A stretch of 32,000 nucleotides of DNA, taken from NCBI RefSeq assembly GCF_000008565.1, contig NC_001263.1, forward strand, positions 2,383,347 to 2,415,346. Reading direction: 5' to 3'. Shown here one piece after another: positions 1 to 23,378 of the stretch. Numbering within the stretch: the first letter of the stretch is position 1; every line of letters begins with the position of its first letter. The notes under the pieces are model-generated. The model did no database searches. It was not told where the DNA came from and saw only the letters and a program-made list of their open reading frames with translations. Origin of the DNA: Deinococcus radiodurans R1 = ATCC 13939 = DSM 20539 (GTDB lineage Bacteria > Deinococcota > Deinococci > Deinococcales > Deinococcaceae). A program made the position numbers and the translations under genes.

Positions 1-782
<782 letters not shown>

Positions 783-803
783 GGGATTAGCTCCTAGAGA
801 TAG

Positions 804-1673
804 TCAAATTCTTTGTGTTGTAAGTGCCAATTTCCAAAGCATGCCATTGTCGCCTATAACCAGTTCGCGACAAGCCTCATAATCTGCTCTGGTGAGAACT
901 TCTGTATGTGCTGCACGGTTGCGAAAATCGCGGGTCAGCTTAGTAATCTGAGTGTAGAGTCCATTAATATCACTAATCCAAGATGAACGCGGCCAATCTT
1001 GGAAAAGGTTAAACATTTCTTTTACAACTTGACTAGTTGAGCGACGGCTAATACTGTTCAGCAACGTTTGAAGGAAATGAGCGAATGTTCCCATCTCGGG
1101 TGCTTTACCTTCCCCCGACAAAAATTTAGCTATCCTACCTAGATCTTTATCAGATTTGTCAATGGACAAATTTGTTTCAGAGAGGCGTTTTGAGAGCGGG
1201 TAAAGTATTTTAATAGTTACTTCTGTTTCAAAAGCTTTACACAAGCCAATTATTACTGGCGACCAGTCTAAATCTTCTGGCATGTTCTCTGCTAAATGCT
1301 CAGAAGTAGCTAAAAAACGGAGTGAATTATCAGAAATATGTTGAGCTCTACTGTCTCTAATCTCATATATTTTTTCCAATTCACTGATCTTATTCTTATT
1401 ATAGATCGATAAAAGCAGATCTGCTAACGCTTCTGCCTTTTCACCATCATCTTGATGACCCCTTTTAATTTCCCAGACAGACAGCAAGAATCCGTAACAG
1501 CCATTGCAAAGTGTTTTTTCCCAGTCCCCACGATAAAGAGTTATAAGTTTTGCCTTTTTCTCTTCGCCACAGCGAAAGCACTGAAAAGCGGTGGCGAGAC
1601 TTAAACGATATTGCTGTAGAGGGCCCCGTGTAGGATACGTCTTGACTATCTCTTCAAAACTGGGCTTACGCAT
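804..1673 (-). CDS. Hypothetical zinc-ribbon + HEPN-like protein (289 aa from the SD-preceded ATG; the track ORF extends to 1760) on an AT-rich island
   Basis: Only long ORF in the AT-rich segment, with A/T-rich third positions. GAGGAGAGA precedes the ATG at 1673. Four-Cys ribbon CFRC...CNGC (nt 1497-1580). C-terminal FRNRAAH (nt 906-926) fits the HEPN Rx4-6H motif, preceded by a KAFETEV helix. No named family recognised. Confidence 0.7.
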   Translation of the reverse strand: MRKPSFEEIVKTYPTRGPLQQYRLSLATAFQCFRCGEEKKAKLITLYRGDWEKTLCNGCYGFLLSVWEIKRGHQDDGEKAEALADLLLSIYNKNKISELEKIYEIRDSRAQHISDNSLRFLATSEHLAENMPEDLDWSPVIIGLCKAFETEVTIKILYPLSKRLSETNLSIDKSDKDLGRIAKFLSGEGKAPEMGTFAHFLQTLLNSISRRSTSQVVKEMFNLFQDWPRSSWISDINGLYTQITKLTRDFRNRAAHTEVLTRADYEACRELVIGDNGMLWKLALTTQRI

Positions 1674-1725
1674 TCTCTCCTCGCTTTCGCTCAGCTGGAA
1701 TAAGGAAGGGCTTACATCCAATAAA

Positions 1726-1761
1726 TATGGGCCACAAGCCTTTCTCTGCTTATGGCCCATA
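1726..1761 (-). repeat. Perfect 9-bp inverted repeat TATGGGCCA / TGGCCCATA with an 18-nt loop, between the paaD stop and the island gene; possible terminator or recombination scar
   Basis: Arms at 1726-1734 and 1753-1761 are exact reverse complements. On the minus strand the hairpin is followed by TATTTATTGG. Confidence 0.4.
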
Positions 1762-1771
1762 ACTTATAGCT

Positions 1772-3065
<1,294 letters not shown>

Positions 3066-3746: not shown

Positions 3747-3860
3747 AAGACCCCTCACCCCTTGCTTCGCAAGGCCCTCTCCCCTTGGTAGAGGGAAAAA
3801 GCGCAGTTTGACCCTCTCCTAGGGGGAGAGGGCCTGCCGCAGGCAGGGGTGAGGGGTCTT
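3747..3860. repeat. MITE-like structured intergenic repeat (Deinococcus small noncoding repeat type) between paaA and paaB
   Basis: Perfect 16-nt terminal inverted repeat, aagacccctcacccct (3747-3762) and aggggtgaggggtctt (3845-3860). Nested internal hairpins (ccctctcc/ggagaggg). A half copy recurs at 24294-24346. Confidence 0.75.
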
Positions 3861-11790: not shown

Positions 11791-12705
11791 ATGACGTCTC
11801 ACCTGCGCGGCATTCTGCTTCTGCTTCTGGTCACCGCCATCTGGGGCAGCACCTTCGCGGTGGTCAAGGAGCTCGGCGCCCTACTCGCGCCCCCGGTGCT
11901 GCTCGCCTGGCGCTTTTCCATCGGCGCGCTGGTGCTGCTGCCGCTGGCGGCGCTGAGGCGAACGCCCGCGCCTACAGTGACCGTCACCCAGGCCGACGGC
12001 ACCAGCCTGTGGAGCGACGGCATGGTGCTGGGGCTGTGGCTGATCGCGGGGTACGGCACCCAGACGATTGCCCTGCAAACGACGACCGCCAACCGGGCGG
12101 CCTTTTTCACGGCGCTGAGCGTGGTGCTGGTGCCGGTGTGGCTCACGCTGGTGCAGCGGCGGCGAATGCCCGCCGTGCTGTGGGCTGCGCTGCCGCTGGC
12201 GGTCGCGGGACTGGCGCTGCTCTCGTGGGAGGGCGGCGCCTGGGTCAGCGGCGACGCCTGGGCGCTGGCGTGCGCCGTCACCTACGCCGGATTCATCCTG
12301 GCGCTGGAAAAACTCGCTTCGCGGCACGCGGCGCTGCCGTTCACGCTCGCGCAGGTTCTGTCGGTGGCGCTGGTCGCCTGGGGCTGGGCCCTGCTGAGCG
12401 GCGCACCGCTGTGGCCTCCGCAGGCGGCCTGGGCGCCGCTGTTTTACCTCGGCGTGGTCGCCACCGCCGGCACCACACTGCTGCAAACACTGGGCCAGCG
12501 CCACGTCAGCGCCGCCGAGGCGAGCCTGATCTACGCCCTGGAGCCGGTCAGCGCGGCCCTGTTCAGCTTCGCCCTGATCGGCGAGCGGGTCGGCGCACGC
12601 GGCGCCCTGGGCGGGGCACTCGTCGTTCTTGCCACCGTCCTCAGCAGCCGGGCCGGGGAAACGGAGCCGGTTGCACGTGTCCTCGACAGCTCGCAAGACG
12701 ATTGA
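11791..12705 (+). CDS. EamA/DMT-family transporter (10-TM drug/metabolite exporter)
   Basis: 304 aa, two EamA repeats, N-terminus [18 protein letters not shown] typical of the family. Confidence 0.9.
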
Positions 12706-12897
12706 TGGACTTCGTTCAAGACGGACTTTCAGAATCAAGTATGTCAGTGAACGAATATTATTAGAGCTGACGGAAGATGAACGGCGGCGACACTGGATGA
12801 AAGTACGGCGCAGCGAGGCAATATGCCTCCGCCGCTTTCCAAAGAATGAGTTTCCTGGCTACATTTCTCACCGCCAGAACCGACAAGATGGAAGCAC

Positions 12898-14706
12898 ATG
12901 AAGCTGCCTGCCATGCTCCTCTCATCAGCGCTGCTGCTCGGCTCATGGGCGGCGGCTCAGACAGATCCCTTTTTGCGCGCCGCGCCGGCCCAGGTCAAAC
13001 CGACGGTGCGCGGCAGCGCGGCAGCGCCCCCCAGCGCTGCTCCCTCCTTCGCCACACCGTCGGCGGCCACGCAGCCGCTGGCCCAGGCCAAGGAAACGAC
13101 TTTCGGAAGCCCGCGCATCAGCGGCACGGCGGAAGCCACCAAACTGGTGTTCGACCTGCCCAAGGGCATGACCTACACGCTGGTGCCGACCTTCGGCGGC
13201 CTGCGGATCGACGTGGGCGGGGTGCGGGTGGCTCCGGCCTCGTCGCTGCGGCTGGCCGAGAACCTCACCGAGTACCGCGCCAACAACGGGCAGATCATCA
13301 TGGGCACGCCCTTTCCCCTGTCGCTGAGCGACGGCTGGCGGGCGACCGAGGCGACCATCGCCAACGGCAACCGGGTGCTGATCGTCGAACTCGGCTCGCA
13401 ACTGCGCGGCGGGGCCGGCAACGTGGGCGGGCGGGTGCTCGCCGCGGCGCCTGCCGACCCGCGTGCCCAGGCGAGCTTGCAGGCCCCGGTGCCGGTGACC
13501 GACACGGCGGCGAGCAGCGCCCTCACCAGCCACCTCCCCCCCGGCGACAGCGTCAAGCAGCAGCCCGCCACCCCGCCGGCGCCCCTGGCCCCGCTGCCCG
13601 GCGCCGATACCGCCCGCCCCAGCGCGCTGGTGGGCCGCATGCCCGGCTCGCTGAGCAGCGGCGCCACCGTAACCACGCCGCGTATCGGCAAGAACCCCGG
13701 CGTGACCCGCATGGTCCTCGACCTGCCGCCGGGCGCGGGCTACCGCATCGTGCCGGGCACGGTGGGGCTGCGCGTCGAACTGCTCGGCGTGGGCCTGGGC
13801 GACGCCAACACCAACGAGCAGAACACCTCCGCCGAGGTCCGCGCCTGGCGCTACGAGCCCTCCGCCGAAGGGGTCAACCTCAGCATCGTGACCGGCTCGC
13901 CGACCACCTCGCGCAGCGGCTGGCGGGCGCAGGTGCTGCCGCCGCTCAACAGCGAGCGCTCGCGGTTGGTGCTCGACATTTCTCCGGCGATGGCGAACCT
14001 GACTCCGCTTTCGCCCCGCGACAAGGTGCTCGCCGCTGTGCCCCCCATGACGGCGAGCAGCGGCGCGGCGGTGCTGTCGCTGCGGGCGGCCTCGGTGCGG
14101 CCCCGCGTGATCATCGACCCCGGTCACGGCGGCAAGGACCCCGGCGCCACCGGAGCGATCACCGAAAAGGACGTGACCCTCGACGTGGCGCGGCGGGTGC
14201 GTGACCTGCTCGTCGCCGCCGGGGTGGACGCCGTGCTGACGCGCGAAACCGACCGCGAACTGCACCCCGACAAGAACACCGACCTGCAAATGCGCGCCAA
14301 GATGGGCACCCCCGGCACCCAGATGTTCGTGAGCATCCATGTCAACGCCACCGAAGCCAGCGCCGCGCTCGCGGGCTACGGCATCGAAACGTGGTGGAAT
14401 CCCAACCACGCGCTGTCCTACCAGCTCGCCACCGTCTTGCAGCGCGACATGGTCGACGTGACCGGCGCCTTCGACCGGGGCATCAAGGGCTACCGCTCGC
14501 TGAGCGTGCTGCGCAACAGCCGCATCCCGGCGGCGCTGGTCGAGATCGGCTTTACCAGCCACCCCGTCGACGGCCAGAACCTCGCCGACAACAACTACCT
14601 CGACCGCGTGGCGATGGGCATCGCTTCCGGCATCCGCGACGCGCTGATGACCGGCGTGAGCGCCGCAGGCAAACCGGCGGCGTCGGCGGTGGGCGGCGGA
14701 CCGTAA
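12898..14706 (+). CDS. N-acetylmuramoyl-L-alanine amidase (Amidase_3) with signal peptide and AMIN-like repeats
   Basis: 602 aa. Signal peptide MKLPAMLLSSALLLGSWAAAQ. Three AMIN-like modules (TKLVFDLPKG..., TRMVLDLPPG..., SRLVLDISP...). The C-terminal catalytic domain has IIDPGHGGKDPGA and SIHVNA. Confidence 0.93.
   Translation: MKLPAMLLSSALLLGSWAAAQTDPFLRAAPAQVKPTVRGSAAAPPSAAPSFATPSAATQPLAQAKETTFGSPRISGTAEATKLVFDLPKGMTYTLVPTFGGLRIDVGGVRVAPASSLRLAENLTEYRANNGQIIMGTPFPLSLSDGWRATEATIANGNRVLIVELGSQLRGGAGNVGGRVLAAAPADPRAQASLQAPVPVTDTAASSALTSHLPPGDSVKQQPATPPAPLAPLPGADTARPSALVGRMPGSLSSGATVTTPRIGKNPGVTRMVLDLPPGAGYRIVPGTVGLRVELLGVGLGDANTNEQNTSAEVRAWRYEPSAEGVNLSIVTGSPTTSRSGWRAQVLPPLNSERSRLVLDISPAMANLTPLSPRDKVLAAVPPMTASSGAAVLSLRAASVRPRVIIDPGHGGKDPGATGAITEKDVTLDVARRVRDLLVAAGVDAVLTRETDRELHPDKNTDLQMRAKMGTPGTQMFVSIHVNATEASAALAGYGIETWWNPNHALSYQLATVLQRDMVDVTGAFDRGIKGYRSLSVLRNSRIPAALVEIGFTSHPVDGQNLADNNYLDRVAMGIASGIRDALMTGVSAAGKPAASAVGGGP

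Positions 14707-23302: not shown

Positions 23303-23378
<76 letters not shown>

Follow-up and report, generated by a model that had tools for sequence, protein, structure and literature searches.

We analysed a 32,000-nt stretch of Deinococcus radiodurans R1 (NC_001263.1, positions 2,383,347 to 2,415,346 of the forward strand; hereafter the window, with coordinates counted from its first nucleotide), in which an initial annotation had singled out an AT-rich, single-gene island inside a paa operon. A cassette of ~930 bp has been horizontally acquired into the spacer between paaD and paaZ. Its only gene encodes a 289-aa protein in which an N-terminal Cys4 zinc ribbon is followed by a helical linker and a C-terminal domain, and profile comparisons support assigning that domain to the HEPN superfamily, of the Swt1/Abi2 type. 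On balance, the protein is probably a stand-alone, auto-inhibited HEPN endoribonuclease that takes part in conflicts with phages and mobile elements and that arrived as a bare cassette.

The island was confirmed by base composition. In 200-nt windows, the G+C content (GC) was 0.64-0.72 in the flanks versus 0.32-0.47 between ~783 and ~1800, and no other region of the window fell below 0.54. The open reading frame (ORF) has a GC of 0.41 and a GC at third codon positions (GC3) of 0.35, compared with a GC3 of 0.85 in paaD and 0.87 in paaZ. Horizontal acquisition had been proposed from composition, with a comparison of the same junction in related Deinococcus genomes as a check, and this comparison yielded an empty site: in a plasmid of Deinococcus sp. 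QL22 the paaD-paaZ gap is 83 bp long and holds no gene, and therefore the window gene is an insertion. Both boundaries of the insert were set by alignment to the QL22 site. A hairpin behind paaD and the ribosome-binding site (RBS) of paaZ align to it and are therefore native, so that the foreign DNA is limited to ~796-1725; the AT-rich stretch of about 1 kb stands as first described, and its proposed extent (~783-1785) is narrowed accordingly for the inserted DNA. The insert holds little besides the ORF: ~50 bp lie upstream of it and ~8 bp downstream. Neither a target-site duplication nor terminal repeats nor an integrase was found there, and the first and last of these had already been reported as not visible.

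Two side observations concern the junction. A 12-nt perfect inverted repeat (AGAGATAGTCAA / TTGACTATCTCT) has one arm lying across the left end of the insert and the stop codon of the ORF; ~0.05 such matches are estimated by chance in a 1.3-kb stretch, and the repeat could reflect pairing at the mRNA ends or a recombination scar. The D. psychrotolerans plasmid NZ_CP034185 carries another small foreign gene at its paaD-paaZ junction (L092, 4681-5034), coding for a 117-aa DUF559 protein (Vsr-like endonuclease fold) with a GC of 0.51 versus 0.64-0.66 in the flanks, and bordered by ~40-nt inverted repeats (CCCCTCCCAGCCTCCCCCCTCAAGGGGGAGGAG and its complement). Small mobile genes thus seem to land repeatedly in the paaD-paaZ spacer.

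The ORF was read from the ATG at 1673. An ATG further upstream (1760) would give 318 aa, and the homologs align instead from the MRKP start. The ORF ends 21 nt from the downstream ATG at 782, and the coordinates in the initial annotation for this gap, for the four cysteines (C32, C35, C56 and C59; nt 1497-1580) and for the FRNRAAH segment (F250-H256; nt 906-926) were all correct. An identical protein in the same paa context occurs in Logan ERR4142723. The AlphaFold2 (AF2) model, with a predicted local distance difference test score (pLDDT) of 89.3, contains a beta-rich zinc ribbon (residues 9-55), long helices (57-130) and an all-helical C-terminal domain (138-285). Pairwise identity within the family was 68% in the zinc ribbon, its most conserved region, 49% in the linker and 55% in the C-terminal domain. 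The window protein had no above-threshold match in Pfam, NCBIfam or PADLOC; PHROG gave two hints: the zinc ribbon hit a family that has no name, and phrog_2158, 'abortive infection resistance protein', was matched at E 0.014.

The first homology search returned 484 relatives of ~290 aa, ~50% identical to the query, all unnamed and lacking any Pfam domain, spread over Cyanobacteria, Acidobacteriota, Chloroflexota, Latescibacterota, Actinomycetota, Bacteroidota, Proteobacteria and other groups. An exhaustive search with the C-terminal domain profile extended the family to 601 representatives (E<=1e-3) in more than ten phyla. The domain is also reused in other architectures: some members of 350-745 aa carry it after TPR repeats, an IF2_N-like domain or unknown N-terminal domains, and a Chondrinema plasmid encodes a 1493-aa superfamily 1 (SF1) helicase with the same domain at its C-terminus. 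The HEPN motif is kept in the TPR, IF2_N and helicase fusions. In a Vicinamibacterales locus (L050, 9998-12625) the family ORF runs to 875 aa, as might result from fusion at the C-terminus or from loss of the stop codon.

HEPN domains are marked by an Rx4-6H motif in which the arginine is usually followed by N, D or H, a polar residue; in HEPN RNases, dimers form a composite, metal-independent active site. The C-terminal domain has the classical form of this signature, R-[N]-x3-H, together with an upstream acidic residue, and was modelled confidently on its own (pLDDT 95.2; predicted TM-score 0.90). The RNRAAH motif noticed by the initial annotation proved to be deeply conserved: R251, N252 and H256 are invariant in 36 homologs and in 29 C-terminal domains at 23-38% identity, and nearly all of the 45 most divergent representatives listed keep RNxxxH. 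Across the 29 divergent domains the only invariant columns are S138, E149, R251, N252 and H256, with K146, E151, G195 and A255 nearly so. The helix of S138 and E149 forms a second conserved, active-site-like cluster and aligns with YCRALENEL of a Paenibacillus protein (P0402, below) and with SRAIENEL of the Chondrinema helicase.

Weak matches of the divergent domains pointed the same way. Six of the 25 Pfam families that they hit are HEPN families (DUF4145, Abi_2, HEPN_Swt1, HEPN_RiboL-PSP, HEPN_MAE_28990 and pEK499_p136), and since HEPN-type families account for far less than 1% of Pfam, such a concentration is not due to chance. Three queries, the helicase fusion, the consensus of the family and one divergent member from an actinobacterium, had HEPN_Swt1 as their sole or top Pfam match, each time on the motif helix. 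The best scores below threshold were an E-value of 0.0054 for Abi_2, in one of the 29 members, and of 0.015-0.15 for HEPN_Swt1 (13-16 bits, with a cut-off of 27.5). A stepping-stone search with the most peripheral subgroups reached P0402 (WP_126014216.1, Paenibacillus albus; E 1e-18), which UniRef names 'Swt1-like HEPN domain-containing protein', and hhalign of the family C-terminal domain profile against P0402 gave a probability of 95.1% (E 3e-8) over 145 columns that cover both conserved helices. The profile half of the search proposed in the initial annotation thus returned a Swt1-like HEPN match, and the structural half did not: when the full-length and domain models were searched with Foldseek in PDB and BFVD, no HEPN structure was matched significantly, all E-values to such structures being above 0.2. 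The best matches by TM-score were RnlA/RNase LS, for the full-length model, and 2q00, which appears with Las1 and MtlR in the non-significant list for the domain model. The divergent C-terminal domain profile matched only adenylosuccinate lyases among PDB sequences, and these matches were discarded as spurious. A literature search brought up no work on HEPN_Swt1 (PF18731) or on DUF7685.

The gene had been described as standing alone, and its surroundings agree. No partner gene and no adjacent antitoxin is conserved across 54 non-redundant loci, in which four genes on each side were clustered; the largest neighbour cluster, a methyltransferase, occurs at four of them. Among the 150 flanking proteins 96 Pfam families were represented, each at most twice, in a mixture of restriction-modification (R-M) and defence components, transposases and housekeeping functions, among which R-M and defence genes recur. 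Hallmarks of mobile elements were present at nine of the ten loci with Pfam-annotated genes, the exception being the window itself. The closest non-identical homolog (66% identity; L002) lies between hsdS and hsdM of a Type I R-M operon with an integrase. Others lie with integrases or transposases, in islands with PIN-type toxin-antitoxin (TA) genes, in one integrative and conjugative element, beside integrase/resolvase genes, beside YqaJ/ERF and in islands flanked by insertion sequences, and a Cereibacter prophage has the gene in a moron position between head and tail genes. In most of ~60 loci the family gene has a lower GC than its flanks, and several copies have become pseudogenes by splitting or truncation. 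From these contexts we infer a role in defence or as a toxin.

The same contexts bear on a second explanation, namely that the gene is a selfish addiction or toxin module, or one half of a TA system with an unrecognised antitoxin (a small ORF or an RNA), which stabilises itself or its carrier. TA systems often contain HEPN toxins (PMC3710099), the family occurs on integrative and conjugative elements, plasmids and prophages, PIN/ribbon-helix-helix and DUF433 TA genes lie near some loci, and at one (L005) a 96-aa ORF overlaps the gene start by 4 nt. We nevertheless consider this explanation unlikely: no neighbour family is conserved across the 54 loci, the ~50 bp and ~8 bp that surround the ORF are too little for an antitoxin gene, no second ORF fits in the 930-bp insert, and no Rfam RNA family was found there.

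If the protein is instead an auto-inhibited RNase, as we favour, it would act in pairs like other HEPN RNases: R251, N252 and H256, aided by S138 and E149, would make up an endoribonuclease site that is composite between the two copies and needs no metal. The Cys4 ribbon and helical linker would act as a targeting or regulatory module that keeps the RNase silent until a cue such as infection by a phage or mobile element arrives; alternatively, they may dock the RNase on an RNA or ribonucleoprotein target. Activation would lead to cleavage of cellular RNA, a halt of translation and abortive infection, with no antitoxin involved. The RNase activity, dimerisation, trigger and defence phenotype of the window protein are all predictions.

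The zinc ribbon had also been recognised in the initial annotation, and the homologs support it: the four cysteines are invariant in 36 of them. In a comparison of profiles with PDB sequences, the only credible match was N-terminal: residues 7-61 aligned to residues 88-143 of the Trypanosoma brucei protein mt-LAF7, a solved structure, with the four cysteines and their flanking motifs in register (E 1e-7). Foldseek likewise matched the zinc ribbon to 6yxx_EG, with an E-value of 0.013 and a probability of 1.00. Matches to DUF7685 stayed below its threshold of 27 bits (18.7 bits for the consensus and 13.3 bits for the window protein) and were found weakly in 28 of the 36 members; mt-LAF7 itself matches DUF7685 weakly. 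mt-LAF7 (PDB 6yxx, 6yxy and 7aoi) shares its Cys4 domain with the N-terminus of the window protein and differs in being a 155-aa assembly factor of the large subunit of a eukaryotic organellar (mitochondrial) ribosome, with no HEPN domain. It sits at the base of the L7/L12 stalk, bound on unfolded rRNA helices H41/42 of an assembly intermediate (PMC7957421). The Leishmania protein also called 'mt-LAF7' is a SpoU methyltransferase (10.1101/2020.05.02.073890), a different protein of the same name, and was set aside. The zinc ribbon also occurs with no HEPN domain at L080-L091 (for example L085 2532-2720, L088 8748-8939 and L090 10001-10135), as stand-alone ORFs of 60-75 aa or as parts of other proteins, in Bacteroidales, Planctomycetota, Chloroflexota, Mycobacterium and a Nitrosopumilus archaeon.

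This homology raises the question of whether the protein is a nuclease that docks on ribosomes or RNA for constitutive or stress-related RNA processing, in the manner of Las1 or RNase LS. That the ribbon is the most conserved part of the family and is related to a factor of the L7/L12 stalk base would fit such a function, as would the loci at which all neighbours are housekeeping genes. The patchy spread, which resembles horizontal transfer, the low GC of the gene in most hosts, the pseudogenised copies and the mobile-element contexts of nine of ten annotated loci argue in the opposite direction, and the gene is absent from the paa regions examined on related Deinococcus plasmids, as would not be expected of a core function; we regard the explanation as improbable. 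A related reading is that the highly conserved ribbon might be no sensor of phage proteins and might instead dock the HEPN RNase on a conserved cellular target, by analogy with mt-LAF7 most likely the ribosome at the L7/L12 stalk or GTPase-associated rRNA, where it would shut down translation by cutting rRNA or ribosome-bound RNA. We hold this to be doubtful. If true, the regulation would be unlike the ring-scaffold activation of RAZR (below), and kinetoplastids would have captured the same bacterial domain as a mitoribosome assembly factor.

The nearest parallel in layout is RAZR (ring-activated zinc-finger RNase), formerly PD-T7-4 (Zhang et al., Nature 2026, PMC13017515; Vassallo et al. 2022, 10.1101/2022.05.12.491691). 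RAZR is a one-gene abortive-infection protein that begins with a Cys4 zinc ribbon and ends in a divergent HEPN domain of the DUF4145 family, whose R and H are essential; it assembles round rings of phage portal or recombinase proteins (portal, Gp77) and then cuts single-stranded RNA non-specifically, and its zinc finger sets the specificity and is its most variable part (PMC13017515). We recovered the RAZR gene from a viral contig by means of the published cloning primers, built an alignment of its family and compared the profiles. The recovered protein has 219 aa, CPHC...CQHC and R146/N150/H154, and its gene overlaps an integrase gene. Both families consist of single, antitoxin-less genes carried on mobile elements near integrases, and both place a Cys4 ribbon, a linker and a HEPN-like domain with R and H in the same order. 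The best local hhalign alignments set zinc ribbon on zinc ribbon, and N252/H256 on N150/H154 of RAZR.

The two families differ in most other respects. RAZR matches DUF4145 (PF13643) above threshold (49.9 bits), as do all of its homologs, whereas the window protein has no match and only one or two members of its family have one, at E~0.04. The motif is R-x3-N-x3-H in RAZR and R-N-x3-H in the window family. The RAZR linker of 14 residues compares with a helical one of ~70 in the window protein, which also has the larger C-terminal domain. Membership of the RAZR family was therefore rejected, at an hhalign probability of no more than 1.3%. Two IMG/VR contigs, L095 (9622-10230, minus strand) and L096 (3343-4002, minus strand), share the integrase and the downstream flank, and both RAZR primers match them; in the same slot L096 carries RAZR and L095 an unrelated 202-aa ORF with RDAIAH (weak HEPN_RiboL-PSP match, E 0.021), so that different HEPN genes appear to be swapped between conserved flanks. 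Another locus (L108, 4350-5854) has the homolog next to a prophage module of YqaJ exonuclease and ERF recombinase. The RAZR triggers include a ring-forming putative recombinase (PMC13017515), and a link between the two is possible.

Several results weigh against reading the window protein as a phage-responsive HEPN RNase. Homology to RAZR was not detectable, at an hhalign probability of 1.3% for the full length and 0.6% for the C-terminal domain, and the PADLOC library held no match. Conservation runs the opposite way in the two families, with 47% for the zinc-finger domain and 84% for the HEPN domain of RAZR, versus the 68% and 55% given above; a highly conserved zinc ribbon is the opposite of the RAZR sensor, and therefore the trigger-sensing part of the model is weak. 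No member reached the Pfam gathering threshold for any HEPN family, and the HEPN label of P0402 is the source annotation of UniRef. Many neighbours are ordinary housekeeping genes, the window insert is not flanked by any mobile-element or defence gene, the family is rare on viral contigs, and tblastn found no match in deposited phage genomes.

The Abi2/Swt1 clade of HEPN domains (Abi_2, PF07751, comprising AbiD/AbiF; HEPN_Swt1, PF18731) was described by Anantharaman et al. 2013 (PMC3710099), who listed within it a zinc-ribbon fusion (Npun_R5629), a superfamily 1 (SF-I) helicase fusion and embedding in R-M loci. All three arrangements recur in the window family, which also resembles this clade in that its final core helix bears R-N-x-x-x-H and a preceding helix bears a conserved acidic residue. 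The order of elements that the initial annotation likened to that of AbiD/AbiF fits, as this clade is the best match; unlike AbiD/AbiF, the window protein has an N-terminal zinc ribbon (DUF7685-like and mt-LAF7-like) and a long linker. Its statement that the architecture could not be assigned to a named family holds for Pfam and PADLOC, with the qualification that the zinc-ribbon plus HEPN layout itself is known (RAZR, 2026, and the 2013 listing).

The anticodon nucleases PrrC and RloC have an ABC-ATPase N-terminal domain and are kept silent by the R-M complex. They resemble the window family as HEPN-type RNases in Type I R-M operons (compare L002, between hsdS and hsdM); the window family lacks the ATPase, and clear embedding of this kind was seen in only one of ~54 loci, for which reason a PrrC-like rule of residence always within Type I R-M operons was rejected. 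RnlA differs in its N-terminal domains and in being paired with an antitoxin of its own, RnlB. The phage-active HEPN toxins RnlA/LsoA (RNase LS) were matched by Foldseek at query TM-scores (TMq) of 0.32 (7aex) and 0.31 (4i8o) with non-significant E-values (0.25-4.3), and an 'RNaseLS-like protein' at a probability of 0.54.

The family is thus a second one of single genes that combine zinc ribbon and HEPN, alike to RAZR in layout and unrelated to it in sequence, widespread, and missed by current Pfam and PADLOC models, at a time when one-gene zinc-finger HEPN RNases have only just been shown, with RAZR, to be potent phage-sensing immune proteins. Its sensing or targeting logic probably differs from that of RAZR: the reversed conservation suggests another mode of activation or targeting and makes the family a comparison case for how HEPN toxins are silenced with no antitoxin. 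The window locus shows that small defence-like genes can land as bare cassettes of ~1 kb in catabolic operons, at a distance from defence islands and outside the reach of island-based discovery. The analysis supplies targets for mutation (S138, E149, R251, N252 and H256), domain boundaries and a natural empty-site control.

The coordinates of the inserted gene, its domains and its surroundings are collected in Table 1.

Table 1. Features at the paaD-paaZ junction, in window coordinates.
Feature	Position	Strand	Basis
Foreign single-gene insert, ~930 bp, in the paaD-paaZ spacer	796..1725	.	GC and alignment to the Deinococcus sp. QL22 empty site
ORF, 289 aa: zinc ribbon, helical linker and Swt1/Abi2-type HEPN-like domain	804..1673	-	Sequence; AF2 pLDDT 89.3
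Cys4 zinc-ribbon domain, residues 7-64 (C32, C35, C56, C59)	1482..1655	-	Four Cys invariant; mt-LAF7 match
Helical linker, residues 65-135, least conserved region (49% pairwise identity)	1269..1481	-	AF2 helices 57-71, 76-107, 115-130
All-helical HEPN-like putative effector domain, residues 136-289	807..1268	-	AF2, profile searches
Helix with S138, K146, E149, E151 (WSPxxIGLCKAxExE), second conserved active-site-like cluster	1221..1262	-	Divergent alignment
R251-N252-R-A-A-H256, HEPN Rx4H catalytic-type motif	906..923	-	R, N, H invariant
Shine-Dalgarno-like GAGGAG upstream of the ATG at 1673	1677..1682	-	Read from sequence
Arm of 12-nt perfect inverted repeat	796..807	.	Partner 1642-1653, within codons 7-11
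Terminator-like hairpin after paaD, 14-bp stem then U-run, native	1726..1761	-	RNA fold z = -4.4; homologous to QL22 hairpin
paaZ RBS CTCCT, native	791-795	-	Aligns to QL22 empty site
paaD, upstream host gene	1772..2278	-	Pfam FeS_assembly_P and Zn_ribbon_PaaD on the identical contig; relatives annotated paaD
5' part of paaZ-type gene (Aldedh and MaoC dehydratase), downstream host gene	1..782	-	Pfam; relatives' annotation

Of the two host genes named as flanks in the initial annotation, paaD stands, and the gene called paaN encodes an Aldedh plus MaoC protein that is annotated paaZ in relatives. The inserted gene is co-oriented with the paa genes, as had been noted, and the accompanying proposal that it can be transcribed with them is less secure: co-transcription with paaD is not assured because the native terminator-like hairpin lies between the two. 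No sigma-70-like promoter of the gene's own was found between this hairpin and the ATG.

A further explanation is that the protein is an accessory factor of the paa pathway, or a catalytically silent HEPN-like regulator or binding protein, as proposed for MtlR and the HEPN domain of eukaryotic Swt1. Co-orientation with paaABCD and paaZ and the preserved paaZ RBS are compatible with this, and some HEPN families are non-catalytic (PMC3710099). However, R, N and H are invariant, as expected for catalysis, the codon composition is foreign, one related paa operon (Deinococcus sp. QL22) has an empty site and another (D. psychrotolerans) a different gene at the same position, so that the family gene is absent from both, and all nine Pfam-annotated contexts of homologs that were examined lie outside paa operons. 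We consider such a role very improbable. Two of the outcomes that the initial annotation named as refuting its proposal, R and H not conserved among homologs and homologs seated in paa operons, were thus not observed.

Elsewhere in the window, three minor features and nothing else out of the ordinary were recorded. GC dips mildly to 0.54 at 12701-13000. Positions 3751-3795, between paaA and paaB, are 91-100% identical to unannotated plasmid sequence of D. radiodurans and D. wulumuqiensis and may represent a small dispersed repeat of Deinococcus. A tRNA gene lies at 23306-23378 on the minus strand (Rfam, 66.7 bits).

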